A stretch of 37,507 bases of DNA, from NCBI GenBank assembly GCA_036374915.1, contig DASUSU010000156.1, positions 1-37,507 of the forward strand, in the 5' to 3' direction. The notes under the pieces were generated by a model, which made no database searches, was not told the DNA's origin, and saw nothing but the letters and a program-made list of their open reading frames with translations. Positions within the stretch are counted from its first letter, which is position 1, and the number at the start of each line of letters is the position of its first letter. The position numbers and the translations under genes were made by a program. Of the stretch, positions 3,754-33,202 are shown in pieces. This stretch comes from Acidimicrobiia bacterium (lineage in GTDB: Bacteria > Actinomycetota > Acidimicrobiia > Spongiisociales > ZC4RG35).

Positions 3754-3778
3754 ACGACGATCGGGCGATGGTCAACCG

Positions 3779-7162: not shown

Positions 7163-7186
7163 CGCGACCTCACCCGGCGTCCCGCC

Positions 7187-7942: not shown

Positions 7943-7952
7943 GCTCGCCTCG

Positions 7953-11428: not shown

Positions 11429-11480
11429 TGTTATGCACTCCGTCACATATCCGTGACGTCCTGCATTAGGAAGGCGGTTA
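11429..11480 (-). repeat. conserved post-stop-codon hairpin element, copy B
   Basis: On the minus strand it starts at the TAA (11480-11478) of the CrtI-like gene and reads TTCCTAATGCAGGACGTCACGGATATGTGACGGAGTGCATAACA. Orientation relative to the upstream gene is the same as copy A. Confidence 0.8.
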
Positions 11481-13073
11481 CTTCTTCTTGGCCAGGTCCC
11501 CGAGGATCTGTTGGGAGGCGAAGCGGCCGGGGGCGCCCATGACGCAGCCGCCGGGGTGGGTGCCCGAGCCGCATTGGTAGTAGCCCTCGATCGGGGTTCG
11601 GTACTGGTTCCAGCCGGGGGCGGGACGGAAGAAGAACATCTGGGGGGCGAGGAACTCGCCGGCGAAGATGTTGCCCTCGCTCAGCCCGACCACCCGCTCG
11701 ATGTCGAGAGGGGTGACCACCTCCCGGTGGAGGACCAGGTCGCCGAAGCCGGGGAAGAACCCCTCCAGGGTCTTCTGCACCACGTCGCCGAACCTGTCCC
11801 GCTCGGCGTCCCAGTCGCTCTCCCTGAGGTGGTAGGGGGCGTACTGGATGAAGCAGGACATCACCGCCTTGCCCGGCGGGGCCATGTCAGGGTCGACGTT
11901 GGACTGGATGCAGCCGTCGATGTAAGGCTTCTGCGAGTACCACCCGTACTTGGCGTCGTCGAACGCCCGCTCCAGGTAGTCGAGGGAGGGGCCCATGTTG
12001 ATGAAGCCCCGGTAGTGATCGGAGCGCCCTTCCAGACCGGGATAGGTGGGGTTGGAGTCGAGGGCGAAGTTGACCTTGGCCGACGTGCCCTGGAATTTGA
12101 AGCGGCGGATGTTCTCGACCAGGTCGGTGGGCAGCTCCCTCGGGTCGACCAGGTCCATGAAGGTGCGGCGGGGGTCTACCGAAGAGACCACAGTCTTCGC
12201 CGCGAGCTCGGTGCCGTCCTCGAGGACCACCCCTGTGGCCTTCCCGTTCCTGGTGACGACGTGGTCCACCGGCGATTCGAGACGGATCTCGGCGCCGAAC
12301 GCCTGCGCGGCCCGGGCGAGCACCTGGGTGAAGCCGCCGTTGCCCCCCTTGTGGAACGCCCAGGCCCCATAGGCACCGTCGTGCTCGCCGAAGGAGTGGT
12401 AGAGCAGGACCAGCCCCGAGCCCTGCGACCTGGGGCCGACCTTGGTCCCGATGATGCCCGAGGAGGCGAGGAGCCCCTGCATGATGTCCGACTCGAAGTA
12501 GTCCTCGAGGATGTCGGCGGCGCTCCCGGTGGTCAGGCGAATCAGGTCGTGGAGCACGCCGGCGGGCAGGTCGGCCAGATATGCGCCGATGGCGGCCATC
12601 CGGGCCCGCTCCTCGGGGTCCTTGGAGGTGATGTCGGGCGGGATCGAATCCATCAGCGGCCGGATGGCATGGACCACCTGCTCCATCATGTGCCCATAGG
12701 CGTCGTAGGCGTCGGCGTCGTGCGGGGAGTGACGGGAGATCTCGTGGTGGTTCTCGTTCTTGTCCTGCCCGAGGAGGAGGTAGTCCCCGTCTTCGGTAGG
12801 AGCGAAGGTGGAGGGCATGAGCAAGGGCATGAACCCGTGCTTGGTCAGTTCGAGCTCGTGGATGATCTCGGGGCGAAGCAGGCTGAGGGCGTAGGAGAAG
12901 GTGGTGAAGCTGAACCCGGGGTGGAGCTCTTCGGTGATGGCCGCCCCGCCGACCAGGTGGCGTCGCTCCAGGATCAGGGTGTCGAGCCCTGCCCTGGCCA
13001 GATACGCCCCGTTGACCAGCCCGTTGTGCCCGCCGCCGATCACGATGGCGTCGTACTTTCTCTTCTCTGGCAT
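11478..13073 (-). CDS. phytoene desaturase (CrtI)-family NAD(P)/FAD-dependent oxidoreductase
   Basis: MPEKRKYDAIVIGGGHNGLVNGAYLARAG...LERRHLVGGAA, with C-terminal GSGTHPGGCVMGAPG. The 839-aa listed ORF is trimmed to ATG 13073, 8 nt after the upstream gene stop. Confidence 0.85.
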   Translation of the reverse strand: MPEKRKYDAIVIGGGHNGLVNGAYLARAGLDTLILERRHLVGGAAITEELHPGFSFTTFSYALSLLRPEIIHELELTKHGFMPLLMPSTFAPTEDGDYLLLGQDKNENHHEISRHSPHDADAYDAYGHMMEQVVHAIRPLMDSIPPDITSKDPEERARMAAIGAYLADLPAGVLHDLIRLTTGSAADILEDYFESDIMQGLLASSGIIGTKVGPRSQGSGLVLLYHSFGEHDGAYGAWAFHKGGNGGFTQVLARAAQAFGAEIRLESPVDHVVTRNGKATGVVLEDGTELAAKTVVSSVDPRRTFMDLVDPRELPTDLVENIRRFKFQGTSAKVNFALDSNPTYPGLEGRSDHYRGFINMGPSLDYLERAFDDAKYGWYSQKPYIDGCIQSNVDPDMAPPGKAVMSCFIQYAPYHLRESDWDAERDRFGDVVQKTLEGFFPGFGDLVLHREVVTPLDIERVVGLSEGNIFAGEFLAPQMFFFRPAPGWNQYRTPIEGYYQCGSGTHPGGCVMGAPGRFASQQILGDLAKKK

Positions 13074-13081
13074 CGGGTACC

Positions 13082-14281
13082 TCAGGCTGTCTTTCGTGGC
13101 GGGTTGAAGAAGGGAAGCCGGCTCACATTGGCCTTGACCACGTCGTAGCGGTGGTCGATGGTCACCTCGAGCCCCACCTCGGTGCCGACCGCGGCGTGCT
13201 CGGGACGGACCCGTGCGATCCCGACGTGACGCTGGGTCATCGGCGAGTAGACGAAGCTCGGGGTGTACCCGATCCGCTCCAGCTTCTCGTCGTAGATCAT
13301 CATCCCCCCGTGCTCGGGGGTGTGGTCCTTGGGCGGGACCAGGCTTCGCTCGTTGTAGACCCGGTTCCAGTCCTCCCAGTCGACGGTGATCCCCACCGTC
13401 TTCCATCGGGAGGTGCCTTCCTTCAGCTCGCGCTCGATGGCGCGGCGGCCGATGAAGTTGCGATCGTCGCTCTCCAGGTCGCGCAGCATCCAGCCCAGGC
13501 CGAGCTCGTGCGGAGTGGTGCGCTGGTCGTCGTTCCAGGCATACCGGGAGGAGTGGAAGTCGACATCGATCAGCACGAGCCCGGCCTCGATGCGGGCGAT
13601 GAGCAGGGCGGTCTGCCCGGCCGGGATCACCCCATAGGGTGCGGCAACCTCGAAGAGGGCGTCCCAGACGCCGACTGCGTCTCCACGCTCGACCCAGATC
13701 TCGTAGCCGAGGTCTCCGGTGTAGCCGGTCCGGGAGATGGTCACCGCGGCAGTGCCGATCTTTGCCGGGGTGAGATGGAAGTAGCCGATCTCCGTCATTT
13801 CCGGGGCGAGTTGCTGGAGGATCTGGCGGGCATAGGGGCCTTGCAGGGCGAGTGCCCCGTATTCGTCGGAGACATCTTCGATTGCGACCGCCATCGCACC
13901 GGCCAGGTCCTGGAGATAGGCCATGTTGGGCTCGGCCGCGGTGAGCAGGAACTCGTCTTCGGAGTGTCGCAGGATCACCCCGTCCTCGACCACCCATCCG
14001 GCGTCGTCACACCAGACCGTGTAATGCGCCTGCCCGGGCCGGCACTTCCGGATGTCCCGGGCCAGCACGCCGGCGAGGAAGGTCTCGGCGTCTTTCCCCG
14101 TGATCCAGTACTTGTAGAGGGGGGAGGTGTCGATGACGGCGGCCGAGTTCCTGATCGCGAAGTACTCGAACTTGTCCGACATCTGATATCGATCGGTGGC
14201 CAGATACCCGGACCAGTGGCTCCACAGACCGGTCTGGTTGGCCTGGCTGGTCCTGGGGTGGAACGGCGTCTCTCGGATCAT
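13082..14281 (-). CDS. aminomethyltransferase (GcvT/DmdA) family protein, folate-binding
   Basis: RNSAAVIDTSPLYKYWITGKDAETFL, LALQGP and ISRTGYTGDLGYEIW motifs. Trimmed to ATG 14281 (MIRETPF). Confidence 0.85.
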   Translation of the reverse strand: MIRETPFHPRTSQANQTGLWSHWSGYLATDRYQMSDKFEYFAIRNSAAVIDTSPLYKYWITGKDAETFLAGVLARDIRKCRPGQAHYTVWCDDAGWVVEDGVILRHSEDEFLLTAAEPNMAYLQDLAGAMAVAIEDVSDEYGALALQGPYARQILQQLAPEMTEIGYFHLTPAKIGTAAVTISRTGYTGDLGYEIWVERGDAVGVWDALFEVAAPYGVIPAGQTALLIARIEAGLVLIDVDFHSSRYAWNDDQRTTPHELGLGWMLRDLESDDRNFIGRRAIERELKEGTSRWKTVGITVDWEDWNRVYNERSLVPPKDHTPEHGGMMIYDEKLERIGYTPSFVYSPMTQRHVGIARVRPEHAAVGTEVGLEVTIDHRYDVVKANVSRLPFFNPPRKTA

Positions 14282-14325
14282 GTCGGCTGCCTCGATTCTG
14301 GTCCGGCCACTGTAATCCCGGTTGT

Positions 14326-14341
14326 CTGAATCGTCATTCAG
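14326..14341. promoter_or_regulatory. island palindrome site: CTGAATCGTCATTCAG (perfect 6-bp arms)
   Basis: Lies in the 189-bp divergent region, 45-60 nt upstream of the GcvT-like start. A minus-strand TACAGT -10-like hexamer sits 11 nt downstream of it. Confidence 0.6.
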
Positions 14342-14450
14342 GTTTGGCTCGCACCCGGTCCACAGCCCCGCTCCCAACGACCGTGGAGATGGCACGTGTC
14401 CCGATTCGACGCATCGGTCGGCTCGAGGGGATACATTCCCGAGGTCAAAC

Positions 14451-14466
14451 CTGAACGGAGAGTCAG
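14451..14466. promoter_or_regulatory. island palindrome site: CTGAACGGAGAGTCAG
   Basis: Ends 4 nt before the ATG (14471) of the ABC substrate-binding gene and overlaps its RBS. Identical to site 29473-29488 at 14 of 16 positions. Confidence 0.5.
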
Positions 14467-14470
14467 AGTC

Positions 14471-16231
14471 ATGAGACGGATAGTCGTGTTGCTGCTCGTT
14501 GCCCTGGTCGCAGTGTCACTTGCCCCAGTTGTCTCGGCCCAGGAGGATGACGACCAGGTCACCCTCCGCATCGGGCTGACCCAGGATTGGGAGACCTTGA
14601 ACCCGACGTCGGGTTTCGCGGTCAGTGAGTACGAGGTCTGGAACGTCCATTACGCCACCTTGACCGACAAGGCGGCCGACGACTTCGAGACCTCACCCGG
14701 CCTGGCCGAGTCGTGGGAGGAGGTGGAGCCGGGCATCACCTACACCTACACCCTGCGAGAAGGCCTGCTCTGGTCCGATGGTGAGCCCCTCACCGCCGAG
14801 GACGTGGCCTGGAACATCAACACCGCCCGGGATCAGGGCTGGGACAACATGATCTCCACCGTGGCCAACATCGAGGCCACCGTGGTCGACGAGCGCACCG
14901 TCCAGCTCACGTCTTCGGTGCCCGACCCCAAGCTTCCCACCATGGACGTCTACCTGGTGCCTCAGCACATCTGGGAACCGATCGCCACCGACTACGACGC
15001 CGCCACCCAGTATGCGGCCGAAGACGGTGTCGGGAGCGGGCCGTTCGTCGTCAGCGAGTTCACCAAGGGCCAATCGGTGGTCATGGACGCCAACCCCAAC
15101 TACTGGGGATGGGAGGGTGAGGAGCCCCCCTACGACCGGGTGATCTTCCAACTGTTCGAGAACCCCGACGCCATGGTGGCCGCTCTCCAGCAGGGCCAGC
15201 TCGACGCGGCGCATGGCTTCCCGGCCGGCTCCTGGGAGTCGCTCGAGGCCGACCCTGACATCGAGGTTGTCGCCGGCCAGCAGGGCGGGTTCGACGAGAT
15301 CGCCATCAACGGCGGGGCCGCCGAGGGCCAGCCCCATCCCGCCCTTCTCGACGTGAACGTGCGTCGGGCCATATCCCACGGCATCGATCGGGAAGCGGTG
15401 ATCGAGGACCTCTGGTTCGGGCTGGCCGACCCGCTGGAGACGATGAGCCCGTCGGCGGACCCCAAGTGGCTTCCCGAGATCCCCGAGGAGAACCGGCTGG
15501 GCTACGACCCGGACCGGGCCAACCAGATCCTCGACGAGGGGGGCTACCTCGACAGCGACGGGGACGGGGTGAGGGAGATGCCCGACGGGTCGAACCCGAT
15601 CGTCATCCGTCATGCGGTCAACACCGACGGTGACCTCGCCGGCCCGATCGGAGAGTTGATGGTGGGCTGGATGGAGGACATCGGGATCGGGGTCACCCTG
15701 GAGTCGTACGACCAGGACGCCCTGTTCTCGGTGATCGTCGAGGGCACCTACGACACCTTCTTCTGGGGCTGGGTGCCCTTCGTGGATCCCGACCCGATGC
15801 TCTCCTACTTCACCGAGGCCGAGTTGGGCAACTACAACGACGCCAACTGGTTCGACCCCGAGTTCGATGCCATGTATCTCGCCCAGAAGGAGGAGATCGA
15901 CGAGGAGGAGCGGATCGCAATCGTCCACGACATGCTCACCCTGTTCCACGACGCCGCCATCTACATCCCCATGTATCTCGGCCCTGACCTGCAGGCCTAT
16001 CGCACAGACACCTTCGAAGGCTGGGTGAAGCAGCCTGCCGAGATCGGCCCGGTCATTTTCACAAACTCCTCGCCCAGCTACGCCCGCCTCAGCCCGATCG
16101 GGGCCGAGGGCGGCGGGTCCGACGACGGGATCAACTGGCTCCTCTGGGGCGGGATCGCCGCCGGGATCGTGGTCCTGGCCGCGGTGTTCCTGATCACCCG
16201 ACGCACCGCCTCCAGGGACGAACGGGAGTGA
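14471..16231 (+). CDS. ABC transporter substrate-binding protein, family 5 (peptide/nickel, DppA/OppA-like), with predicted C-terminal membrane anchor
   Basis: Sec-type signal MRRIVVLLLVALVAVSLAPVVSAQ and an SBP_bac_5-like body (TYTLREGLLWSDGEPLTAEDV). C-terminus is INWLLWGGIAAGIVVLAAVFLITRRTASRDERE. Confidence 0.85.
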   Translation: MRRIVVLLLVALVAVSLAPVVSAQEDDDQVTLRIGLTQDWETLNPTSGFAVSEYEVWNVHYATLTDKAADDFETSPGLAESWEEVEPGITYTYTLREGLLWSDGEPLTAEDVAWNINTARDQGWDNMISTVANIEATVVDERTVQLTSSVPDPKLPTMDVYLVPQHIWEPIATDYDAATQYAAEDGVGSGPFVVSEFTKGQSVVMDANPNYWGWEGEEPPYDRVIFQLFENPDAMVAALQQGQLDAAHGFPAGSWESLEADPDIEVVAGQQGGFDEIAINGGAAEGQPHPALLDVNVRRAISHGIDREAVIEDLWFGLADPLETMSPSADPKWLPEIPEENRLGYDPDRANQILDEGGYLDSDGDGVREMPDGSNPIVIRHAVNTDGDLAGPIGELMVGWMEDIGIGVTLESYDQDALFSVIVEGTYDTFFWGWVPFVDPDPMLSYFTEAELGNYNDANWFDPEFDAMYLAQKEEIDEEERIAIVHDMLTLFHDAAIYIPMYLGPDLQAYRTDTFEGWVKQPAEIGPVIFTNSSPSYARLSPIGAEGGGSDDGINWLLWGGIAAGIVVLAAVFLITRRTASRDERE

Positions 16232-16289
16232 CCAGCTGACCGTCGGACAACAGAGAAGGCGGGGGCGAGGGCGACTCATCGCGCGGAAG

Positions 16290-17228
16290 GTGCTGGGGTC
16301 GTTGCTCACCCTCGTCTTCGTCCTGGTGTTCAACTTCCTGTTGTTCCGGGTGGTGCAGACCGATCCGATCGGCTCGTTGTTCCGGGGAAGGAACGTCCCG
16401 CAGGCCACTCTGGACAACCTGCGTGAATCGTTCGGTCTCGACCAGTCGCTGGGCACCCAGTTCGTCTTCTACCTGAGGGAGACGGCACAGCTCAACTTCG
16501 GTCTCTCCTATCAGAGCCGTCAGCCGGTGTGGGACGAGATCGTGTCCGCGGTGCCGGCGACGGTCGCCCTGGTCGGGGTCTCTTCCGTCCTCTCCGCCGT
16601 CATAGGCACCGCGGCCGGAGTCATCGCCGCCTGGCGCCGCAACACCTGGAAGGACCACACCATCACATCGGGGACGATGGTGTTCTACTCGATGCCCGAC
16701 TTCTGGCTGGGGATGATCCTCCTCGTCTTGTTCGCCGTGGTCCTGGGGTGGTTCCCGGTCGGGGGCGTGGCCACCGCCGGCTCCAATGCCACCGGCTTTG
16801 CCCTCCTCCTCGACCAGCTACGGCACATGTTCCTGCCCGCCCTCACCCTCACCCTCGCCTACCTCGGCGAGTACACCCTGGTGACCAGGAGCTCGTTGCT
16901 GGATGTGATGGGGGAGGACTACCTGACCGTGGCCCGGGCCAAAGGCCTCCGTGACGTGGTTGTCCGCAACCGTCATGCGGTGCCCAATGCGCTGCTCCCG
17001 GTGGTCACCCTCACCGCGATCAACTTCGGCTTCGTCCTGTCCGGCGCGATCGCAGTGGAGGCTGTCTTCTCCTGGCCCGGGCTGGGCAAGGCAACCGCAG
17101 ATGCGATCCGGGGGCCCGACCTCCCCATGCTCCAGGGTCTCTTCCTCCTGTTCAGCGCGGCCGTGATCGTGTTCAACCTGATCGCCGACCTCACCTACTC
17201 CTGGCTCGACCCCAGGGTGGAGACATGA
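16290..17228 (+). CDS. ABC transporter permease (DppB/OppB-like)
   Basis: BPD_transp_1 features (LVTRSSLLDVMGEDYLTVARAKGL). The first canonical start is GTG 16290, but the conserved basic N-segment (RLIARKVLG) is encoded upstream in frame, so the true start is uncertain. Confidence 0.8.
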   Translation: MLGSLLTLVFVLVFNFLLFRVVQTDPIGSLFRGRNVPQATLDNLRESFGLDQSLGTQFVFYLRETAQLNFGLSYQSRQPVWDEIVSAVPATVALVGVSSVLSAVIGTAAGVIAAWRRNTWKDHTITSGTMVFYSMPDFWLGMILLVLFAVVLGWFPVGGVATAGSNATGFALLLDQLRHMFLPALTLTLAYLGEYTLVTRSSLLDVMGEDYLTVARAKGLRDVVVRNRHAVPNALLPVVTLTAINFGFVLSGAIAVEAVFSWPGLGKATADAIRGPDLPMLQGLFLLFSAAVIVFNLIADLTYSWLDPRVET

Positions 17229-18118
17229 CCAGCATCGCCATGCAACGCCGACGGGCCACGGTGGGCCGGGTGTGGCGACAGTTCCGCGCCTCGCGGCAGG
17301 GGATGATCGGTCTCGCCGTACTCGCCGTGTTCGTCATCGTCGCCCTGGCCGCCCCTCTCCTCGCCGACGTCAGGGAGCTGAACCCGGTGTATGCCCGCGG
17401 AGCCGGCAACCCGCAATGGGGCACACCGGGCCAGTTTCCCCCGCTCGGCACCGACCACATCCGGCGCTCGGTGTGGGCCCAGTTCGTGTGGGGCTCCCGG
17501 GTCAGCCTCTTCGTCGGGCTCGCCGCCACGGTGCTCACCATCAGCATCGGGTCGGTGGTCGGCATCGTCTCCGGCTTCCTGGGCGGGAAGGTCGACGGTC
17601 TCCTGATGCGAATCACCGAGTGGTTCCTGGTCATCCCGTTCCTGCCGCTGGCCATCGTGCTCGCCTCGGTCCTGGGCCGGTCGGTGTGGAACATCATCTT
17701 CGTCATCGGTATCACCTCCTGGCCCTCGACGGCGAGGCTGGTCCGGGCCCAGGTGCTGACGGTGAAACAGCGGCTGTTCGTCGACCGGGCCCGCTCGCTC
17801 GGCGCCAGCGGAACCCACATCGTCGGCCATCACATCCTCCCCAACGTGAGCGGTCTGATCTTGGCCAACGCCACGCTCGCGGTCCCGATCTCCATCCTGA
17901 CCGAGACCACGCTCGCCTTCCTCGGGCTGGGCGACCCCTCTGCAGCTTCTTGGGGCAAGACCCTGGAAGAGGCCTTTGTCAACGGGGCCATGGTCCGCAA
18001 CGCCTGGTGGTACTTCCTCCCCGCCGGGCTCGGGATCCTCGCCGTGGTGCTCGCCTTCACTCTGATCGGGCGCACTCTCGAGGAGATCGCCAATCCCCGT
18101 CTGAGCAGGGGACGATGA
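17225..18118 (+). CDS. ABC transporter permease (DppC/OppC-like)
   Basis: ATGA overlap with the upstream permease. Typical GTDHIRRSVW and FVDRARSLGAS motifs. Confidence 0.85.
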   Translation: MTSIAMQRRRATVGRVWRQFRASRQGMIGLAVLAVFVIVALAAPLLADVRELNPVYARGAGNPQWGTPGQFPPLGTDHIRRSVWAQFVWGSRVSLFVGLAATVLTISIGSVVGIVSGFLGGKVDGLLMRITEWFLVIPFLPLAIVLASVLGRSVWNIIFVIGITSWPSTARLVRAQVLTVKQRLFVDRARSLGASGTHIVGHHILPNVSGLILANATLAVPISILTETTLAFLGLGDPSAASWGKTLEEAFVNGAMVRNAWWYFLPAGLGILAVVLAFTLIGRTLEEIANPRLSRGR

Positions 18119-22302: not shown

Positions 22303-22315
22303 CGGCGGAGATTAC

Positions 22316-22331
22316 TTGAACGGTGGTTCAG
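22316..22331. promoter_or_regulatory. island palindrome site: TTGAACGGTGGTTCAG
   Basis: The 15-mer 22317-22331 is identical to 25578-25592. It lies 13 nt upstream of the Rieske-1 start and includes the stop codon of the CocE/NonD gene. Confidence 0.65.
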
Positions 22332-24319: not shown

Positions 24320-24356
24320 GGCGGGACAATATCGAAGCTGGTTATCGTCGCCGCCG

Positions 24357-25565
24357 ATGCCCGCCGCCGCCTCACCCCGTCGAGTGATCGTGGTCGGGGC
24401 CGGGGTCGCCGGTCTCACCGCGGCGCGGCGGCTGACCGAACAGGGGGTCGAGGTGCTGGTGCTCGAGGCGAGGAGCCGGGTCGGGGGCCGGGTCTGGTCG
24501 CACCGGCTTCCCAACGACGAGATCGTCGAGTTGGGCGGGGAGTGGATCTCCACCTCCCAGACCCCGGTGATCGAGCTCGCCGCCGAGCTCGGGCTCGGTC
24601 TCGTCGACACCGGGATGGATTTCATCACACGCGATCCGGTGGGTGGCCCGGTCATCCCCGACGACGAGCACGAGCGTCTTGGACGAGCCCTGGCCGCGCG
24701 CATGGAGGAGCTCGGGCCCGAGCGGTTGGCGGAGATGACCGTGGCCGACCTGCTCGCCGGGGTCGAACAACCGGGGGCGGCCGGGGTGGTGCTGCGCTCC
24801 CGTCTCGCCGGCACCGCCGGGGCGCAGCTCGACCAGGTCTCGGCCGGGGAGATCGGCGAGGAGTTCGGGGTGGGAGACCAGGGTTCCTACGTCCGGATAG
24901 ACGGCGGCAACGACCGGCTGGCCAAAGCCCTCGCCGCAGGTCTCGAGCTTCGTCTCGACACCGAGGTCGTCTCGATTCAGCAGCGGGTCGCTGGAGTCGG
25001 CGTAGCCACGAGGAACGAGGAGCTCGGGGCGGAGGCCGTGGTCCTTGCCCTTCCGCTGCCCGTCTTGAGACGTCTGGTCTTCGAGCCGGCCCTCCCCGAC
25101 GACTTGGCCCTGGCCCTCGATCGCCTCCGCATGGGGAAAGGGGTCAAGGTGGCGGCGCCCACCGGCGAGGAGCCGCCGATGTTCCGGAGACAGGACACCG
25201 ACATTCCCGCCTGGTATTGGACCGGGCTCGAGCCGACCGGGTCGGTGCGGAGAGCGGTGACCGGGTTCGCCGGCACCGGGCCGGGGGTGACGTCCCTGCT
25301 GAGCGAGACGATGGCCAGGCTGGCCAGGGCGGCGCCGGAGGTCGGTCTGGGCGTCCCCGTCGTCGCCGACTGGGTCTCCGATCGGTTTGCCGGAGGGTCG
25401 TATTCGGTGATCGGGCCCGGTCAGCGTGGTCTGCTCGAGTCGCTTGCCCGACCCTGGGGGAGGGTGTTCTTCGCCGGCGAGCATGTCAACGGGTCGGGAA
25501 CCATCGTCGGAGCGATCGAGAGCGGCGAGGCTGCGGCGACCCGTCTCCTCGCCACAGTCCTCTGA
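24357..25565 (+). CDS. flavin-containing amine oxidase family protein
   Basis: RRVIVVGAGVAGLTAARRL...VLEARSRVGGRV and C-terminal FFAGEHVNGSGTIVGAIESG. Trimmed to ATG 24357. Confidence 0.85.
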   Translation: MPAAASPRRVIVVGAGVAGLTAARRLTEQGVEVLVLEARSRVGGRVWSHRLPNDEIVELGGEWISTSQTPVIELAAELGLGLVDTGMDFITRDPVGGPVIPDDEHERLGRALAARMEELGPERLAEMTVADLLAGVEQPGAAGVVLRSRLAGTAGAQLDQVSAGEIGEEFGVGDQGSYVRIDGGNDRLAKALAAGLELRLDTEVVSIQQRVAGVGVATRNEELGAEAVVLALPLPVLRRLVFEPALPDDLALALDRLRMGKGVKVAAPTGEEPPMFRRQDTDIPAWYWTGLEPTGSVRRAVTGFAGTGPGVTSLLSETMARLARAAPEVGLGVPVVADWVSDRFAGGSYSVIGPGQRGLLESLARPWGRVFFAGEHVNGSGTIVGAIESGEAAATRLLATVL

Positions 25566-25576
25566 GCGCAGGTTTT

Positions 25577-25592
25577 CTGAACGGTGGTTCAG
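25577..25592. promoter_or_regulatory. island palindrome site: CTGAACGGTGGTTCAG
   Basis: Perfect CTGAAC/GTTCAG arms. Lies 50 nt upstream of the ALDH GTG start and 10 nt upstream of a TAGCGT -10-like hexamer (25603-25608). Confidence 0.65.
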
Positions 25593-25642
25593 TCGCCGGT
25601 GCTAGCGTCCAATCACACCGATCCCATCACCTGGAGGCGGGT

Positions 25643-27082
25643 GTGAAACAGCTCTACATCGACGGCAAATGGGTCGACCCGCGCTCCGGGGAGAGCTTCG
25701 AGACGCTGAACCCGGCCACCGGCGAGGTCCTGGAAGTGGTCGCGTCGGCCGGTCCCGACGATGCCGCCGCCGCGGTAGCCGCGGCGCGGCGGGCGTTCGA
25801 CGACGGCACCTGGGGGGCGCAGTCGGCGCCGCGGGATCGCTCAACCCTGTTGTTCAGGGTGGCCGAGATCATCCGCCGCGACCGTGACCGGCTCGCCGAA
25901 CTGGAGACCCTGGACAACGGCAAGCCGCTCGGCGACTCGTATTGGGACGTGGACGAGGCGGCCTACATGTTCGAGTACTACGCCGGCTGGGCGACCAAGG
26001 TGATGGGCTCGATCCCGCCGGTGGGCCCGGAGGCGATGAGCCTGGTGATCAAGGAGCCGGTCGGTGTCGCCGCCCTGATCACGCCGTGGAACTACCCGAT
26101 CCTGATGGCGAGCCAGAAGGTCGCACCCGCCCTCGCCGCCGGCTGTACCGCCATCCTCAAGCCTGCCGAGCAAACCCCGCTCACCGCCCTCGAGCTGGCC
26201 CGCATCCTCGAAGAGGCCGGCGCGCCGCCCGGAGTGTTCAACCTCCTCACCGGTTTCGGCCCCGAGGCCGGGGCGCCCCTGGTCGCCCATCCCGGGGTGG
26301 ACAAGGTCTCGTTCACCGGCTCGGTGGAAGTGGGCAAGATCATCTCCCGCTCGGCATCGGACACTCTGAAGCGGGTGACCCTGGAGCTGGGCGGGAAGTC
26401 ACCGAATCTGATCTTCGCCGACGCCGACTTCGCCTCGGCGGTCGAGGGCACCTGCGCCGGGATCTTCGCCAACGCCGGTGAGATCTGCTCGGCGGGGAGC
26501 CGGGTGCTGGTGGACAAGGCGATCTACGACGACGCGGTGGCCGCGATGGTCGACAACGCGGCCCGGATCAAGGTAGGCAGCGGGCTCGACCCGGACACCA
26601 CGATGGGACCCCTGATCTCCTCCGAGCACAAGGAAACCGTGCTCTCCTATGTCGGGTCGGGCCGGGAGACTGCGGAGGTGGCCTATGAAGGCTCGCTTCC
26701 CACCGACCCAGGTCTATCCGGCGGCTATTTCATCCCGCCCACCATCTTCACCGAGGTGGCCAACGACGCCACGATCGCCCGCGAGGAGATCTTCGGGCCG
26801 GTGATGGCGGTGATCCCGTTCTCCGACGAGGACGAGGCGATCCGGATCGCCAACGACACCAGCTACGGGCTGGCCGCCGCGGTGTGGACCTCGGACGTGA
26901 AGCGGGCGATGAAGGTGGCCCGGGGGATCAGGGCCGGTGTGGTCTGGGTCAACGACAGCCAGCCGGCGCCGACCGAGTCGATCTGGGGCGGGTACAAGAC
27001 CTCGGGGGTGGGGCGCGAGCTGGGCCCCTGGGGCATCGAGTCGTATCTCGAAGAGAAGCAGATCTACCTCAACCTGGGATGA
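25643..27082 (+). CDS. NAD(P)-dependent aldehyde dehydrogenase (betaine-/aminobutyraldehyde-dehydrogenase-like)
   Basis: GTG 25643 lies 5 nt after GGAGG. Motifs ITPWNYP, FTGSVEVGK, LELGGKSP and catalytic GEICSAGSR. Confidence 0.9.
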   Translation: MKQLYIDGKWVDPRSGESFETLNPATGEVLEVVASAGPDDAAAAVAAARRAFDDGTWGAQSAPRDRSTLLFRVAEIIRRDRDRLAELETLDNGKPLGDSYWDVDEAAYMFEYYAGWATKVMGSIPPVGPEAMSLVIKEPVGVAALITPWNYPILMASQKVAPALAAGCTAILKPAEQTPLTALELARILEEAGAPPGVFNLLTGFGPEAGAPLVAHPGVDKVSFTGSVEVGKIISRSASDTLKRVTLELGGKSPNLIFADADFASAVEGTCAGIFANAGEICSAGSRVLVDKAIYDDAVAAMVDNAARIKVGSGLDPDTTMGPLISSEHKETVLSYVGSGRETAEVAYEGSLPTDPGLSGGYFIPPTIFTEVANDATIAREEIFGPVMAVIPFSDEDEAIRIANDTSYGLAAAVWTSDVKRAMKVARGIRAGVVWVNDSQPAPTESIWGGYKTSGVGRELGPWGIESYLEEKQIYLNLG

Positions 27083-28248
27083 GCAGCCTCCTCACCACCG
27101 CCGAGCTGGCACTGCAGGACCGGGCCCGTGCCTTCGTCGACGAGTTGATCCCCTGGGAGGTGGAGGCCGAGATGAACCGGGGAGAGATCCCCGAGGACGT
27201 GCTCACCGGGCACAAGGAGAAGGCCCGGGAGCTGGCGCTCACCTCGATCAACATGTCGGAGCGGCTCGGCGGCCCCGGGTACGGAATGCTGGCCCAGGTC
27301 CTGATCCAGGAGCAGACCGGTCGGGTCACCAATGCCCTGGGCTGGGTTGTGTCGACCGGGCCTTCCTGGATCGAGGAGGTGGCCACCGACTTCCAGATCG
27401 AGAGGTGGATCCGCCCCACCGTCTCCGGCGACATCCACGAGTGCTACGCCATCACCGAGGAGCGGGCCGGATCGGACGTGGACGGGATCGAGGCCACGGC
27501 GCGGCGTGACGGCGACGACTACGTCCTCAACGGGGTCAAGTGGCATGTCACCTCGGCCAATCTCGCCTCGTACGTGTTCTTCCAGGCCAAGTTGGCCGAT
27601 GGCCCCAATGCCGGGCGTCATGTCCTCTTCTTCGTCGACATGGACACGCCGGGCGTGGAGTGCGTCCGGGTCCCCGAGTACACCCATACCTACAGCCACC
27701 ATCACTGGGAGATGAGCTTCACCGACGTCCGGGTCCCGAGCGAGAACCTGGTGGGCAGCGAAGGCGACGGGATGAGCTTCTCCCATGCCTGGTTTCGCTA
27801 TGAGCGGCTGATGATCGCGGCCCGGTGTTGCGGGGCGGCGGAGCGTCTCATCACCGAGGCCACGAATTTCGCCGAGGAGCGCCAGGCGTACGGGTCGAGG
27901 ATCGCCGACTACCAGGCGATCCAGTTCATGCTCGCCGACTCCCTGACCGAGCTGTGGGCGGCACGGCTGATGACCTACGAGACGGCCCGGGCCATCGACG
28001 CCGGGGTCGACGTCAAGGTCCAGCACGCCCAGTGCTCCATGGCCAAGTTGTACGCCTCGGAGATGGCGAACCGGGTGGCCGACCGGGCGGTGCAGATCTT
28101 CGGCGGGCGTGGGTTCATGCGGGAGAACGTCGCCGAGCGCTTCTACCGCGAGCTCCGCGTCGATCGCATCTGGGAAGGCACCTCCGAGATCCAACGCCTC
28201 ATCATCGCCGACCAACTCCGCAAACGCGGGGTGGGGCCCCTCACCTGA
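27079..28248 (+). CDS. acyl-CoA dehydrogenase family flavoprotein
   Basis: ATGA overlap with the ALDH stop. Motifs YAITEERAGSD, FGGRGF and IWEGTSEIQ. Confidence 0.85.
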   Translation: MSSLLTTAELALQDRARAFVDELIPWEVEAEMNRGEIPEDVLTGHKEKARELALTSINMSERLGGPGYGMLAQVLIQEQTGRVTNALGWVVSTGPSWIEEVATDFQIERWIRPTVSGDIHECYAITEERAGSDVDGIEATARRDGDDYVLNGVKWHVTSANLASYVFFQAKLADGPNAGRHVLFFVDMDTPGVECVRVPEYTHTYSHHHWEMSFTDVRVPSENLVGSEGDGMSFSHAWFRYERLMIAARCCGAAERLITEATNFAEERQAYGSRIADYQAIQFMLADSLTELWAARLMTYETARAIDAGVDVKVQHAQCSMAKLYASEMANRVADRAVQIFGGRGFMRENVAERFYRELRVDRIWEGTSEIQRLIIADQLRKRGVGPLT

Positions 28249-28254
28249 ACGCGG

Positions 28255-29433
28255 TTACCTCAGCTCGCGGGTGGGGACTTCTGGCACCACGAGGCCCTTG
28301 CCCTGGTAGGCGTGGGCGATGATGTTGAGGAATTGGTAGACGGTTCCTTCCCAATTGCTCAGGGGACCGGGGCGGTAGCCACGATTCTTCACCCCGCGCA
28401 TCACCGACTCACAGGCCGCCCAATCCTCACGGTTGGTGATGTCCCAGAAGTCGACCGCATAGGCGGGGTCGAACCCGTCGCGCTCGAACGCCTCCGGGGG
28501 GAAGAGCCAGGAGCACTCGATCTGGGTCTGGTCGACCGAGATCGGGGTGAGTCGATGGGTCATGACGTAGTCGGGATGGAGCGAAAGGAGGAGGTTCGGC
28601 ATCACCGTCAGGTACCACACCTGGCGGGCCAGCTCGTCGTCCACGTTGCGGAACCTGACCCCGTTGGACGCTCCGTCGAGGGACATGGTGACTGCGTGAG
28701 GCTTCAGCTCCATGGTCCCGCCACACCACATCCCGGTCGGAACGTGGTCGTAGCCGCTGTCGGGAGGGGTCACCTCGCACAGCTCTGGGTGGATCGAGGA
28801 GCAGTGGTAACACTCGTTGTAGTTCTCGATGATGATCTTCCAATTGGCGTCGACCACGTACGAATGGGTGGCGGCGGTGACCAGTCGCTCGGTCTCATAG
28901 GGGGCGGCGATCTCGGCGAGATTGCCGAAATGGCCCTCGATCGGCTGTGCCTTCCCGGACAGGTCGATCCAGACCCATCCCCCGTACACCGCGACCCCGA
29001 GATCGATGAGCGGGTAGTCGGCCATGTCGAGGTTGTCGCTGCGGGTGAATTTGGGAGCGGTGCGCAGACTCCCGTCGAACCGGTAGGCCCAGCTGTGATA
29101 GGGGCAGCGGATCTGACGGGCATCGAAGGCGTCCCCGATCGGCGCCAGCTCGTGGCCGCGATGACGGCAGACATTGGAGAAGGCGCGCAGCTCCCCGCCG
29201 GGGTCCCTGCTCAACAGCACGCCCTCGCCGCCGACTTCGATCGCCCGCAGCTGTCCCGGGCCGACCAGCTCGTCGAGGCGCCCCACGCAGTTCCAGGTCT
29301 CCTGCCAGAGGTGCTCTCGCTCCCACGCCAGCACATCGGCGGAGAGGTAGGCGTCGGCGGGGAGGGTGAGGCTCGAGCCGAAGACGTCGAGCACCCTCGT
29401 GATCTGATCCTGATCGAGTGGTGCCGGTCTCAT
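28255..29433 (-). CDS. Rieske [2Fe-2S] non-heme-iron oxygenase, alpha subunit, copy 2 (paralog of 21202-22302)
   Basis: CRHRGHEL...CPYHSWAY and ENYNECYHCSSIHPEL. ATG 29433 is preceded by GGAGAG. Confidence 0.85.
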   Translation of the reverse strand: MRPAPLDQDQITRVLDVFGSSLTLPADAYLSADVLAWEREHLWQETWNCVGRLDELVGPGQLRAIEVGGEGVLLSRDPGGELRAFSNVCRHRGHELAPIGDAFDARQIRCPYHSWAYRFDGSLRTAPKFTRSDNLDMADYPLIDLGVAVYGGWVWIDLSGKAQPIEGHFGNLAEIAAPYETERLVTAATHSYVVDANWKIIIENYNECYHCSSIHPELCEVTPPDSGYDHVPTGMWCGGTMELKPHAVTMSLDGASNGVRFRNVDDELARQVWYLTVMPNLLLSLHPDYVMTHRLTPISVDQTQIECSWLFPPEAFERDGFDPAYAVDFWDITNREDWAACESVMRGVKNRGYRPGPLSNWEGTVYQFLNIIAHAYQGKGLVVPEVPTRELR

Positions 29434-29468
29434 TCCCGTTCTCTCCTGCCGCCGCCGTCCCCGCAGTG

Positions 29469-29492
29469 TATCCTGAACGACGAGTCAGGATA
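29469..29492. promoter_or_regulatory. island palindrome site, extended form: TATCCTGA-ACGACGAG-TCAGGATA
   Basis: Perfect 8-bp arms in the 77-bp divergent region. The core CTGAACGACGAGTCAG is 29473-29488. It abuts a minus-strand TACACT -10-like hexamer (29470-29465). Confidence 0.65.
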
Positions 29493-29510
29493 CCGAAAGG
29501 AAGGTGGCTC

Positions 29511-30875
29511 ATGTCCCCCGGGGACGGGCAAGTCTCGGCTCTCGACGACTTGATCGCAAGCGAAAGGCGCCATTTCCTGGAACGGGCGCCGAAGGCCACC
29601 GAGATGGGCGCTCGCGCCAGTCGGTCGCTGGCCGGAGGGGTCACCTCGAGCTGGCAGATCTCGGATCCTCAGCCGATCTGGATAGATCGGGGACTGGGAT
29701 CCCGGGTCTGGGACGTCGACGGCAACGAGTACGTCGATCTTCACGGGGGATACGGTGTGATGCTCGCCGGGCACGCCCACCCGGCGGTGGTTGCGGCGGT
29801 CTCGGATCGGGTCCGCAAGGGCACCCACTTCGCCCAGCCGACCGCCGACGCCATCGTCGTCGCCGAGGAGCTGTCGGCCCGATACGGTTTTCCCCTGTGG
29901 CGGTTCGGCAACTCGGGCACCGAGGCGACCATGGACGCCATCCACCTGATGCGTGCCATCACGGGCCGTGACCTGATCATCAAGTTCGAAGGCGCCTATC
30001 ACGGGCACCACGACACGGTGATGGTCTCGGTCTGGAACGAGGAGGGCCTGGGCTCGGTGCACCGCCCCAGGAGCCTGGCCTCGGGGAGCGGGATACCCCA
30101 GGCCATGGTCGATCTCACCCTGGTGGCGACCTTCAACGACCTCGAGGTCGCCCGCGCCCTGTTCGAGGAGAACGAGGGAAAGGTGGCCGGTGTCATCATC
30201 GAGCCGATTCTGCAGAACTGTGGCGTGCTCCTTCCCCAGCCGGGCTTTCTCGAGGGTCTGCGCGATCTGGCCCACCAACACGACGCCCTGCTCACCTTCG
30301 ACGAGGTCAAGACCGGGCTTACCGTCGGCAAGGGCGGCGCCACCAAGCACTACGGAGTCCAGCCCGACATCGTGTGCCTGGCCAAGGCGCTCGGCGGAGG
30401 TCTCCCCATCTCCGCCATAGGCGGGAGCGAAGAGGTGATGGGCAATATCGCCGACGGGACCTATGAGCAGGTGGGGACCTTCAACGGCAACCCGCTCTCG
30501 ATGGCCGCGGCCAGGGCGATGCTCACCGAGGTGATGGTTGACGAGGCCTACCAGCACCTCGCCCACATCCAGAGCCGGATGGAGAAGGGTGCCAACGAAG
30601 TGGTGGGGCGTCACAGGCTGACCGCCCACGTCGCGACCGCGGGCGCCAAGGGAAGTGTGATCTACTGCGCCGAGCCGATGCGGACCTATCGCGACTTCCT
30701 CGCCGTCGATGGCAGGTATGCCCAGGCCGCCTGGCTGTACCAGTTCAACCGGGGCGTGTTTCTCCCTCCGTGGGGCAAAGGCGAGCAATGGCTCCTCTCG
30801 GTGCAGCATTCCGACGAGGACGTGGACCGCTATCTCGAGACCCTCGACGGCTTCGCCTCGATCATCGCCCAATGA
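29511..30875 (+). CDS. class-III (GSA-aminomutase-like) PLP-dependent aminotransferase
   Basis: ATG 29511 follows AAGGAAGGTGG. Motifs DVDGNEYVDLHGGYG, FGNSGTEA, FEGAYHG and FDEVKTG (PLP lysine). Confidence 0.85.
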   Translation: MSPGDGQVSALDDLIASERRHFLERAPKATEMGARASRSLAGGVTSSWQISDPQPIWIDRGLGSRVWDVDGNEYVDLHGGYGVMLAGHAHPAVVAAVSDRVRKGTHFAQPTADAIVVAEELSARYGFPLWRFGNSGTEATMDAIHLMRAITGRDLIIKFEGAYHGHHDTVMVSVWNEEGLGSVHRPRSLASGSGIPQAMVDLTLVATFNDLEVARALFEENEGKVAGVIIEPILQNCGVLLPQPGFLEGLRDLAHQHDALLTFDEVKTGLTVGKGGATKHYGVQPDIVCLAKALGGGLPISAIGGSEEVMGNIADGTYEQVGTFNGNPLSMAAARAMLTEVMVDEAYQHLAHIQSRMEKGANEVVGRHRLTAHVATAGAKGSVIYCAEPMRTYRDFLAVDGRYAQAAWLYQFNRGVFLPPWGKGEQWLLSVQHSDEDVDRYLETLDGFASIIAQ

Positions 30876-30899
30876 GCCGGTCGTAGACTCGCCCGGCTC

Positions 30900-31961
30900 A
30901 TGAGCGGCGCCGTCGAACTGGTCGATTTGGAGAAGTGGTTCGGCGATGTCGCCGCAGTCGACCGAATCAGTCTTCGTATCGAGGATGGGGAGTTCTTCTC
31001 GCTGCTCGGACCGTCCGGGTGCGGCAAGACCACCACCCTCCGCCTGATCGCCGGGTTCGAGCGCCCCGATGCGGGGGCGATCATGATCGACGGGGCGGAC
31101 CAGGCGTCGATCCCGCCCCACAAACGCCCGGTCAACACCGTATTCCAGAGCTATGCGCTGTTCCCGCACATGGACGTGGCCGAGAACGTCGCCTTCGGGC
31201 TCCGCTACCAGGACGTCGGCAAGACCGAGGAGAGGGCGAAGGTGGGGGCGGCGTTGGAGCGGGTCCGGTTGACCGGGATGGAGAGTCGCAAGCCGACCCA
31301 GCTGTCAGGCGGGCAGCAGCAGCGGGTGGCCCTGGCCCGCTCTCTGGTGCTCAACCCTTCGGTTCTCCTCCTCGACGAGCCGCTCGGCGCCCTCGACGCC
31401 AAACTGCGCAAGGCCCTCCAGGTCGAGCTGAAGACACTGCAGGAGGACTTGGAGATCACCTTCATCTACGTGACCCACGATCAGGAGGAGGCCCTCACCA
31501 TGTCCGATCGGATCGCGGTCATGAGCGCAGGCCGGGTGGAACAACTGGGGACCCCTTCGGAGGTGTACGAGACGCCGACATCGAGTTACATCGCCGACTT
31601 CCTGGGGATCTCCAACCTGATGCCGGCGCTGTCCACCGGGCCGGGACGGATCGCCGTGGCGGGGCGGGAGATGACCTGTGTGCCCACCGGGGCAGTCAGC
31701 GGCGCGGTGACGGTCTGTATCCGGCCCGAGCGCGTCGAGCTGCACCCCCCGTCGTTCGTCGGGGACAACACCCTGTCCGGCGACATCGAGCGTGTGATCT
31801 ACGCCGGCGCCCTGCTCAACGTGCTGGTGAACATCGCCGACGTGGGCACGATCCAGGTCACCGTCCCGAATCAGGGCGCCGCCTTCGGCTTCGATTGGCC
31901 CGACCCTGTCGTCCTCCGCTTCCCCTCCGAGGCCCTGCGGATCGTTTCCACCGGCCCATAG
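30900..31961 (+). CDS. ABC transporter ATP-binding protein, PotA/CysA-like (no cognate permease or SBP adjacent)
   Basis: GPSGCGKTT, LSGGQQQRVALAR and LLLDEP motifs, plus a C-terminal TOBE-like regulatory domain. Confidence 0.85.
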   Translation: MSGAVELVDLEKWFGDVAAVDRISLRIEDGEFFSLLGPSGCGKTTTLRLIAGFERPDAGAIMIDGADQASIPPHKRPVNTVFQSYALFPHMDVAENVAFGLRYQDVGKTEERAKVGAALERVRLTGMESRKPTQLSGGQQQRVALARSLVLNPSVLLLDEPLGALDAKLRKALQVELKTLQEDLEITFIYVTHDQEEALTMSDRIAVMSAGRVEQLGTPSEVYETPTSSYIADFLGISNLMPALSTGPGRIAVAGREMTCVPTGAVSGAVTVCIRPERVELHPPSFVGDNTLSGDIERVIYAGALLNVLVNIADVGTIQVTVPNQGAAFGFDWPDPVVLRFPSEALRIVSTGP

Positions 31962-32899: not shown

Positions 32900-32919
32900 C
32901 CGGTTGCATGCTCCTGGTT

Positions 32920-32944
32920 ATTGCGGACCAAAGCTGTCCGCAAT
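32920..32944. promoter_or_regulatory. putative operator ATTGCGGAC-N7-GTCCGCAAT
   Basis: Perfect 9-bp inverted repeat, 21 nt upstream of the WYL regulator start, in the 83-bp divergent region. A third half-site CTTGCGGAG is at 32954-32962. Confidence 0.55.
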
Positions 32945-32982
32945 GGATCGTAGCTTGCGGAGACGTAGAGGAAGGAAGAAGT

Positions 32983-33168: not shown

Positions 33169-33202
33169 GTGGTCTCATCGTTCCGTCACCGATCTGGGGC
33201 CG

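Follow-up and report, generated by a model that had tools for sequence, protein, structure and literature searches.

A shared palindrome and a candidate BetI-type regulon for methylated-amine catabolism in an uncultured soil Acidimicrobiia

The window analyzed here is the entire 37507-bp contig DASUSU010000156.1, from the metagenome-assembled genome (MAG) of an uncultured soil Acidimicrobiia (G+C content 67%). It carries a large set of catabolic genes, many with the same 16-bp palindrome near their starts: the consensus is CTGAAC-N4-GTTCAG, and there are five copies in the window, all intergenic. A preliminary description of the window, made from its sequence, had proposed this palindrome as a common operator of six transcription units directed at a methylated amine, betaine or peptide-like substrate. 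From the distribution of the palindrome in related genomes, we think it likely that the copies are operators of a homodimeric repressor of the TetR/BetI type, governing a regulon for methylated-amine catabolism. The gene map was based on frame analysis of third-codon-position G+C (GC3), together with Pfam and NCBIfam matches; the genes of interest, all of whose family assignments in the preliminary description were upheld by these two databases, are as follows.

11478-13079, minus strand: CrtI/CrtO-family flavin adenine dinucleotide (FAD) oxidoreductase, 533 amino acids (aa), second gene of the GcvT-like unit; Pfam Amino_oxidase over residues 20-516
13082-14281, minus strand: stand-alone GcvT-like folate-dependent aminomethyltransferase, 399 aa; Pfam GCV_T and GCV_T_C
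14471-20054, plus strand: Dpp/Opp-type ATP-binding cassette (ABC) importer, consisting of an SBP_bac_5 binding protein (14471-16231), permeases (16290-17228 and 17225-18118) and ATPases (18115-19077 and 19008-20054)
20042-21205, minus strand: MSOX/MTOX-family flavin oxidase, 387 aa; Pfam DAO
21202-22302, minus strand: Rieske-1 oxygenase alpha subunit, 366 aa; group V/Va signature NYNECYHC
22328-24262, minus strand: CocE/NonD (S15) hydrolase, upstream of operator 3; start at 24262 (ATG) or about 24316 (GTG)
24357-25565, plus strand: flavin amine oxidase, 402 aa, upstream of operator 4; Pfam Amino_oxidase
25643-27082, plus strand: aldehyde dehydrogenase (ALDH), 479 aa; best model betaine-aldehyde dehydrogenase (BADH), below its cut-off
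27082-28248, plus strand: acyl-coenzyme A (CoA) dehydrogenase, 388 aa; Pfam and NCBIfam
28255-29433, minus strand: Rieske-2 oxygenase alpha subunit, 392 aa; NYNECYHC signature
29511-30875, plus strand: class-III aminotransferase, 454 aa, resembling glutamate-1-semialdehyde aminomutases and beta-transaminases
30900-31961, plus strand: PotA-like ABC ATPase, 353 aa, with permease and binding-protein partners beyond an inserted WYL/GNAT/FecCD block
37435-37507, minus strand: 3′ end of a PotB/C-like permease gene (stop and 23 codons), cut by the contig end; aligned with the related loci L087 and L088

The five palindromes, for which the coordinates and sequences first given were both correct, are placed among these genes as follows.

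14326-14341: operator 1, CTGAATCGTCATTCAG, 44 nt before the ATG of the GcvT-like gene (14281, minus strand)
14451-14466: operator 2, CTGAACGGAGAGTCAG, 4 nt before the ATG of the Dpp binding-protein gene (14471), overlapping a Shine-Dalgarno-like GGAG stretch
22316-22331: operator 3, TTGAACGGTGGTTCAG, 13 nt before the GTG of Rieske-1 (22302), in the 25 bp separating the S15 hydrolase stop from the Rieske-1 start
25577-25592: operator 4, CTGAACGGTGGTTCAG, a perfect palindrome 50 nt before the GTG of the ALDH gene (25643), just past the amine-oxidase stop at 25565
29473-29488: operator 5, CTGAACGACGAGTCAG, inside an extended palindrome ATCCTGAAC..GTCAGGAT, common to the divergent Rieske-2 (ATG 29433) and aminotransferase (ATG 29511) genes

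The TGA stop of the S15 hydrolase gene falls inside a half-site of operator 3. Against shuffles of the window that preserve dinucleotide frequencies, the pattern YTGAA-N6-TTCAG is strongly enriched, with 5 strand-matches vs. 0.07 expected; with one mismatch allowed there are 10 matches vs. 2.5 expected, and no shuffle reached 10. Six matches in the window have no more than 2 mismatches to CTGAAC-N4-GTTCAG, and all six fall in the ~8% of it that is non-coding. The sixth, a weak match (CTGAACCCGCGTTCCT, 9449-9464), carries its two mismatches on the same side and, located where two genes converge, overlaps the stop codon of one that is holin-like; probably it arose by chance. In the divergent promoter gap between the S15 hydrolase and amine oxidase genes (about 24263-24356), neither an inverted repeat nor any site within 3 mismatches of the consensus is present. 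The idea that a shared palindrome ties six units together therefore holds in that the palindrome is a real, conserved cis-element, and fails for the S15 hydrolase and amine oxidase genes, which have no site of their own.

Conservation of the palindrome was followed in loci found by a Rieske-1 search with one genome per species, which gave 80 loci (numbered here with the prefix L); further relatives were reached via homologs of the PotA-like protein and of a TetR protein described below. The closest Rieske-1 relatives (72-82% identity) are from soil Acidimicrobiia MAGs, some of them labelled otherwise; their gene sets are largely syntenic with that of the window, and they have the palindrome at orthologous intergenic positions. 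Orthologs of operator 1 are kept in L001-L003, L005, and L089; of operator 3 in L001-L003, L008, L009, L086, and L087; and of operator 4 in L001-L003, L086, and L087. The operator 2 ortholog, which is asymmetric (TGACTCTCC[A/G]TTCA), is present in L001-L003 and L067, and that of operator 5, also with its asymmetry conserved, in L001-L003, L086, L087, L089, L093, and L095. Lack of the motif upstream of orthologs, which the preliminary description had named as a finding that would speak against it, was not what was seen: the palindrome recurs in 13 related Acidimicrobiia loci. In all, 45 sites, representing 35 distinct 16-mers, were collected from 14 loci. Over their 90 half-sites the counts by position are C82, T90, G85, A90, A77/C13, and C54/T36, and there are 18 distinct 4-mers among the central four bases. 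Conserved arms around a free spacer are the pattern expected of a dimeric DNA-binding protein. Within 246 kb of relatives there are 21 sites at no more than 1 mismatch, vs. none in 1.28 Mb of other Rieske-1 loci.

The transcription factors encoded in the window are limited to an HTH_3-cupin protein (3111-3737) and an HTH-WYL-WCX protein (31871-32899), neither with a site nearby. No TetR gene was found in the window by tblastn or by inspection of open reading frames (ORFs); weak TetR matches at 37371-37481 were rejected as noise within a membrane-protein frame. Five relatives (L086-L090) share the gene order of the window (PotA, WYL, small ORF, GNAT, a FecCD block in some, and a 250-aa membrane protein) and then continue with two BPD_transp_1 permease genes, a PotF/PotD-like binding protein gene (SBP_bac_1/8), and a TetR gene (TetR_N and TetR_C_6 domains), divergent from which are genes for an ADP-forming acyl-CoA synthetase and an enoyl-CoA hydratase. 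In L087 and L088, the first of these permease genes has a 3′ end to which the terminal 73 nt of the window (37435-37507, minus strand) can be aligned, so that synteny holds up to the contig end.

Every syntenic relative whose sequence reaches far enough (L086-L090 and L093-L095) has the TetR gene. Copies of the palindrome are found in the divergent gap between it and the synthetase gene (perfect ones in L086 and L087) and in the short stretch separating the TetR stop from the start of the binding-protein gene; both sites persist where the TetR ortholog is only 63-70% identical. Across the relatives, sites with 0-2 mismatches are found both at the TetR promoter region and at orthologs of the five window sites. 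L095 has a compact version of the locus, in which the synthetase, TetR, transporter, and aminotransferase genes and a partial ORF at the expected position of Rieske-2 are contiguous, with no WYL gene. The regulon is accordingly larger than the island first outlined (11478-31961) and continues beyond 31961; in relatives it adds the PotF-like binding protein and permeases, the TetR gene itself, the acyl-CoA synthetase, the enoyl-CoA hydratase, and in some (L089 and L090) PurU.

The top NCBIfam models for this TetR protein are both for BetI (TIGR03384, 89 bits vs. a cut-off of 201; PRK00767, 84 vs. 118), and it aligns over its full length with E. coli BetI at 29% identity (E = 3e-17). A PDB search with it returned only uncharacterized structural-genomics entries. 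The E. coli betI-betT spacer contains TTGATT-GGAC-GTTCAA, which we take to be the BetI operator; it has the same 6-4-6 geometry, with a TGAAC half-site. The BetI2 boxes of Ruegeria pomeroyi have the flank AAACTTGAAC in common (PMC12442346). A common operator for the units, as originally suggested, is supported; the regulator, left unnamed at that stage, is most likely a BetI-like TetR protein which would be encoded just past the right end of the contig.

Two other candidates were considered and dropped. The HTH_3-cupin (PuuR-like) regulator at 3111-3737 has no site nearby and is not beside the cluster in L089 or L090, whose flanks reach that far. A distinct TetR family (“TetR7”) adjoins Rieske-1 clusters in other Actinomycetota, Chloroflexia, and Acidobacteria (L010, L018, L032, L048, L049, L061, L065, L074, L078, and L079), where its operator, TGACC-N3-GGTCA, is usually found in two copies per divergent gap. 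This operator is one base shorter than the palindrome in the window and the proteins are similar only in the HTH region, marking a different system. Two of these loci (L048 and L065) additionally carry sites of the window type, TGACT-N4-GTTCA, near an acyl-CoA dehydrogenase gene (its product 63-65% identical to that of the window) and a third CrtO-like gene. Sphingomonad clusters with a further TetR type (“TetR22”) have no comparable palindrome nearby.

An indication of what the regulon acts on comes from the two Rieske proteins. Both have Rieske and Ring_hydroxyl_A domains, with cluster motifs CRHRG...CPYH and Fe-site motifs ECYHCGPVH and ECYHCSSIH (in ExxHxxxxH context), and their best solved relatives are CntA and Stc2. 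In alignment, both read N-Y-N-E-C-Y-H-C, vs. N-Y-M-E-C-Y-H-C in CntA and N-N-R-E-C-Y-H-C in Stc2, with the motif residues matching Y203, E205, C206, H208, and C209 of CntA. The form N-Y-x-E-C-x-H-C is found in 86 of 88 family members from the fetched loci, and one more has Phe in place of Tyr. The residues corresponding to Y203, E205, and the Cys pair define the quaternary-ammonium Rieske group V/Va: the Tyr is a pi-cation residue for trimethylammonium, an aromatic residue at this position marking clade Va and Asn clade Vb; the Glu is a bridging residue; and the pair of Cys residues occurs in group V alone (PMC7948474, PMC10952381). Clade Va includes CntA, choline monooxygenases (those of plants among them), and OxyBAC (PMC7948474, PMC10952381). 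The two proteins had earlier been assigned to a GbcA/CntA group; they have the CntA/choline-monooxygenase (Va) signature, and the GbcA/Stc2 demethylase (Vb) signature is absent. Because both have the Va signature, it is very probable that a quaternary ammonium compound serves as the substrate or is formed from it early on.

For the other enzymes, matches are mostly at the family level. The CrtI/CrtO-like flavoprotein (264 bits to NCBIfam CrtO vs. a cut-off of 1000; 76 bits to CrtI in the PDB) is proposed to be a putative tertiary-amine dehydrogenase, and the top NCBIfam match of the GcvT-like protein is to the C-terminal half (folate domain) of trimethylamine N-oxide demethylase (239 bits, below cut-off). 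The MSOX-like oxidase, the start of whose gene overlaps the Rieske-1 stop by 4 bp in the window and in relatives, consistent with translational coupling, passes the cut-off for N-methyl-L-tryptophan oxidase (295 bits vs. 257), falls below that of soxA_mon (249 vs. 480), and has sarcosine oxidases as its closest PDB matches (about 195 bits). The only strong PDB match of the amine oxidase, over its full length, is 7RT0, the methylamine-forming 4-methylaminobutanoate oxidase (133 bits). Scores to the GbcA model (189-190 bits vs. 670) and, for the ALDH, the BADH model (566 vs. 669) are below cut-off, and the cut-offs for GcvT, dimethylsulfoniopropionate demethylase, putrescine aminotransferase, and other models were also missed by the window proteins; within the gene set, N-methyl-L-tryptophan oxidase and a generic CocE/NonD model are the only NCBIfam models passed. 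No described pathway or matching cluster with this combination of genes was found in the literature searched. With the equivalog cut-offs missed as well, the earlier view that the set does not map onto a described pathway is borne out.

The regulation we infer from this arrangement would work as follows. Without inducer, at least six units in the window, and three or more further ones in relatives, would have repressor bound at sites that overlap or abut their promoters and ribosome-binding regions; the repressor would come off on binding a quaternary or N-methylated amine or an intermediate of the pathway. The genes then expressed would encode two ABC importers (Dpp-type and Pot-type), two group-Va-like Rieske oxygenases attacking trimethylammonium compounds, the CrtO-like/GcvT-like pair, the MSOX-like oxidase, the aminotransferase, the ALDH, and the acyl-CoA dehydrogenase, together with the acyl-CoA synthetase, enoyl-CoA hydratase, and PurU encoded off the contig. 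Demethylation could proceed stepwise, from quaternary to tertiary to secondary to primary amine, by a Rieske oxygenase, then the CrtO-like/GcvT-like pair, then the MSOX-like oxidase, with the one-carbon (C1) units passing to tetrahydrofolate via the GcvT-like protein and PurU. The carbon skeleton might be converted by the aminotransferase or amine oxidase to an aldehyde and by the ALDH to an acid, followed by the CoA-dependent steps (synthetase, acyl-CoA dehydrogenase, enoyl-CoA hydratase). The substrate would belong to the betaines or N-methylated omega-amino acids; our best guess, which is speculation, is an omega-trimethylammonio acid such as gamma-butyrobetaine or delta-valerobetaine, which would fit all of the parts. 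As an alternative first step, a CntA-type cleavage may yield trimethylamine and an aldehyde, as the Va signature arguably favors; the ALDH and demethylating flavoenzymes would still be used.

Several points weigh against this reading. The window itself lacks the TetR gene, whose assignment is a prediction from synteny and co-occurrence, that is, from genomic association; the protein scores below both BetI cut-offs, making it BetI-like rather than a BetI ortholog. No site directly precedes the S15 hydrolase gene or the amine oxidase gene. Co-directional genes flank operators 3 and 4, which would imply either internal promoters or roadblock repression, and scans of two regulatory gaps for E. coli-type promoters and terminators detected none; of these two results it is the promoter one that tells against the model. 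Neither the window nor the loci of the relatives yielded a reductase of the CntB/GbcB/Stc4 type (Fer2, FAD_binding_6, and NAD_binding_1 domains). The Va signature is tied to C-N cleavage or chain hydroxylation rather than N-demethylation, so that the first step may release trimethylamine. Finally, PotF-like transport, aminotransferase, ALDH, and amine oxidase would fit polyamine catabolism equally well.

Some of these points bear on other explanations of the palindrome. It might not be a DNA operator at all, but an RNA hairpin (an attenuator, processing site, or translational operator) or a dispersed repeat. Perfect copies fold as 6-bp hairpins (-6.5 kcal/mol), two sites are between co-directional genes, and one overlaps a Shine-Dalgarno-like GGAG stretch, as might be expected of such an element. 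Among the 35 distinct sites, though, stem positions 1-5 show no compensatory change, every departure being one-sided and breaking a pair, and asymmetric sites (CTGACT...GTTCAG) fold at only -1.6 kcal/mol yet are kept asymmetric in orthologs. Sites occur in either orientation relative to flanking genes and in divergent promoter gaps, and the one in the TetR promoter region also speaks against an RNA element. The hairpin reading was rejected on the base-pair statistics, and we regard the RNA or repeat explanation as highly improbable. If the palindrome is an operator, its binding protein could instead be the HTH-WYL-WCX regulator (31871-32899, minus strand), which would then control the island. 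WYL regulators are dimers that bind palindromes, and this gene is the only one for a transcription factor adjoining the island and is kept beside the PotA-like gene in relatives. It has, however, no site with up to 3 mismatches upstream or in the gap between it and the neighboring small ORF; it is always accompanied by that divergent 61-70-aa ORF and a GNAT gene, looking like a separate module; and it is missing from the stretches fetched around the TetR gene in L094 and L095, although three sites (L094) and two sites (L095) are kept there. WYL was rejected as the binder on these grounds, leaving it only a slim chance.

Given a BetI-like repressor, other substrates can be envisaged. The regulon could serve utilization of polyamines or omega-amino acids (putrescine, spermidine, gamma-aminobutyric acid, beta-alanine), the Rieske and demethylation genes representing side activities. 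This would suit the PotA-like and PotF/PotD-like transporter parts, the class-III aminotransferase, the ALDH (462 bits to an aminobutyraldehyde dehydrogenase model), and the amine oxidase, a member of the flavin amine oxidase family with putrescine oxidases among its weaker PDB matches. The polyamine-type matches are all below equivalog cut-offs, however, and no known polyamine pathway has a place for two Rieske oxygenases with the trimethylammonium Tyr, the MSOX-like and GcvT-like proteins, PurU, or a BetI-like regulator; we consider this route unlikely. About equally unlikely is the classical route from choline through glycine betaine, dimethylglycine, and sarcosine to glycine, assembled from non-orthologous parts: a Rieske choline monooxygenase and the BADH-like ALDH in place of BetA and BetB, with the second Rieske protein, the CrtO-like/GcvT-like pair, and the MSOX-like oxidase in place of GbcAB, DgcAB, and Sox. 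The BetI-like regulator, the BADH model as the best one for the ALDH, the similarity of the MSOX-like protein to sarcosine oxidases, the presence of PurU, and a group Va signature in common with plant choline monooxygenases would all fit. Such a route would nevertheless leave the acyl-CoA synthetase, acyl-CoA dehydrogenase, enoyl-CoA hydratase, aminotransferase, amine oxidase, Pot and Dpp importers, and S15 hydrolase unexplained; none of the GbcA, BADH, or monomeric sarcosine oxidase models passes its cut-off; and the glycine betaine demethylases characterized so far are of group Vb, with Asn at the Tyr203 position.

The preferred reading, a BetI-type regulon for a methylated amine, has parallels in several known systems. 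A TetR repressor with a palindromic operator is an ordinary, known principle. Like the BetI regulons of E. coli (betIBA-betT) and R. pomeroyi (BetI1/BetI2), this one has a TetR-family regulator with a TetR_C_6 (BetI-type) domain, palindromes of TGAAC-type half-sites in 6-4-6 arrangement, predicted autoregulation from a divergent promoter gap, and, as predicted here, control over uptake and oxidation of quaternary amines. It differs in size and gene content, with at least nine units and about 25 genes rather than one divergon, and with Rieske proteins, flavoproteins, and CoA enzymes as targets rather than BetA, BetB, and BetT; the Acidimicrobiia TetR also scores far under the BetI equivalog cut-offs. 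In the GbcAB-DgcAB-SoxBDAG/MSOX system, with PurU, of Pseudomonas and others, there is the same succession of a Rieske enzyme on the quaternary amine, a flavoenzyme on the tertiary, and a sarcosine-oxidase type on the secondary, with C1 units going to tetrahydrofolate, PurU included. The locus described here, by contrast, has the Va (Tyr) rather than the Vb (Asn) signature, no GbcB-type reductase that could be found, and a CrtI/CrtO flavoprotein with a separate GcvT-like protein in place of DgcAB; on top of this come an aminotransferase, ALDH, acyl-CoA dehydrogenase, synthetase, and hydratase, implying that the carbon skeleton is longer.

With CntAB and other group Va enzymes (choline monooxygenase, OxyBAC), the Rieske proteins share the N-Y-x-E-C-x-H-C active-site motif; CntA is the best full-length PDB match of Rieske-1 (139 bits), and an ALDH is encoded downstream, as a CntA-type cleavage would need. 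The similarity is at the family level only (139 and 132 bits; identity estimated at about 30-35%), no CntB reductase gene is present here, and the MSOX-like oxidase to which Rieske-1 is coupled has no counterpart in CntA systems. The lower nicotine pathway of Paenarthrobacter nicotinovorans pAO1, which includes mabO, mao, sad, purU, and folD and has the TetR-family regulator PmfR, is similar in its 4-methylaminobutanoate oxidase (the amine oxidase's only strong PDB match), the ALDH gene next to it, PurU, a TetR-family regulator, and folate-dependent demethylation, here predicted. However, the amine oxidase identity is roughly one third as judged by eye, the demethylating oxidase is not a DAO-GcvT fusion here, upper-pathway genes are missing, and Rieske and CoA-dependent enzymes are added. 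Methylated-amine catabolism has been characterized almost only in Proteobacteria and a few Actinomycetes, and in soil and the rhizosphere betaines and other methylated amines rank among the major forms in which nitrogen and carbon circulate; they are also trimethylamine precursors. The locus offers a testable regulon with a defined operator in uncultured Acidimicrobiia, and a candidate sensor that might become a biosensor once its ligand is known.

Parts of the gene set also occur together well beyond the Acidimicrobiia. Rieske-1 orthologs are 52-63% identical across phyla, and at 73 loci their flanking genes include those for a CrtO-like flavoprotein (35 loci), an MSOX-like oxidase (28), other DAO oxidases (some), an S15 hydrolase (15), an APC, MFS, or Dpp transporter (most; APC in 17), and a TetR protein (some). 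The trio of CrtO-like, Rieske-1, and MSOX/DAO genes recurs in at least six phyla. Tentatively, and with clearly less than even confidence, it might be suggested that the trio (Va-type Rieske protein, CrtI/CrtO flavoprotein, MSOX-like oxidase) is a widespread, undescribed module for three-step N-demethylation of a betaine other than glycine betaine (gamma-butyrobetaine, delta-valerobetaine, or related compounds), which in Acidimicrobiia would be wired into one large BetI-like regulon. Its range would then take in soil Acidimicrobiia, Gemmatimonadota, Eremiobacterota, Chloroflexota, Acidobacteriota, and Proteobacteria, the flavoprotein here having a stand-alone GcvT-like partner. If this is true, the CrtI-family protein would be the first amine demethylase of its family, and Tyr203-type Rieske enzymes would gain demethylase chemistry. 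As a conserved, uncharacterized set of enzymes in at least six phyla, the trio is an experimentally tractable lead to an apparently widespread methylated-amine pathway; once identified, its substrate would close a gap in our picture of C1 and nitrogen cycling in soil and extend the chemistry of group V Rieske and CrtI-family enzymes.

Some related loci have genes at positions where the window has none. In L008 (7249-8301) and L009 (about 3600-4608) there is a gene between the S15 hydrolase gene and the operator preceding Rieske-1, which from its sequence motifs we judge to be of the proline-racemase/4-hydroxyproline-epimerase family; this hints that proline-type substrates (proline betaines) or Xaa-Pro/peptide-linked ones may feed the branch. 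In L001-L003 and L067 (near position 12.3-14.2 kb of each locus), a gene of about 615-695 aa, read from its sequence as a TPR-like domain fused to a histidine kinase, is inserted between the MSOX-like and Dpp ATPase genes, which abut in the window. A gene of 134-137 aa lies between Rieske-2 and the acyl-CoA dehydrogenase gene in relatives; the L089/L090 copy is a Pfam DUF1801 protein.

Two further blocks stand between the PotA-like gene and the contig end. The WYL/GNAT module (31871-33778) consists of the HTH-WYL-WCX gene, divergent from a conserved 61-70-aa ORF without a family match and a GNAT acetyltransferase gene; the three move together in all relatives examined (L081-L090 and L093), and in the window the convergent WYL and PotA-like genes overlap by 91 bp at their 3′ ends. 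Since it is absent between the permease and PotA-like genes in L095, the module looks like an insertion unrelated to the regulon. From 33748 to 37346 there follow an iron-siderophore-type importer (FecCD/Peripla_BP_2/ABC_tran) and the 250-aa membrane protein, splitting the PotA-like ATPase gene from its presumed permeases. The FecCD block is present in L087 and L088 and absent in L086 and L089, and so appears to be a second insertion into the Pot-type transporter genes.

At the other end, directly downstream of the CrtO-like gene, is a gene for a 470-aa predicted secreted protein (9958-11370, minus strand) without a Pfam or NCBIfam match, kept in this position in L089 (1381-2787) and L090. It may be the third gene of the CrtO-like operon or a mere neighbor, and is left out of the regulon model. 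Farther along, the cluster at 3111-9050, none of whose genes carries the palindrome, encodes the HTH_3-cupin regulator, an SDR protein, a creatinase/M24-family hydrolase, an MBL-fold hydrolase, a Vgb-lyase-like beta-propeller protein, and an L-2-hydroxyglutarate oxidase that passes its NCBIfam cut-off (519 bits vs. 299); the last would be relevant if the end product of the regulon were glutarate.

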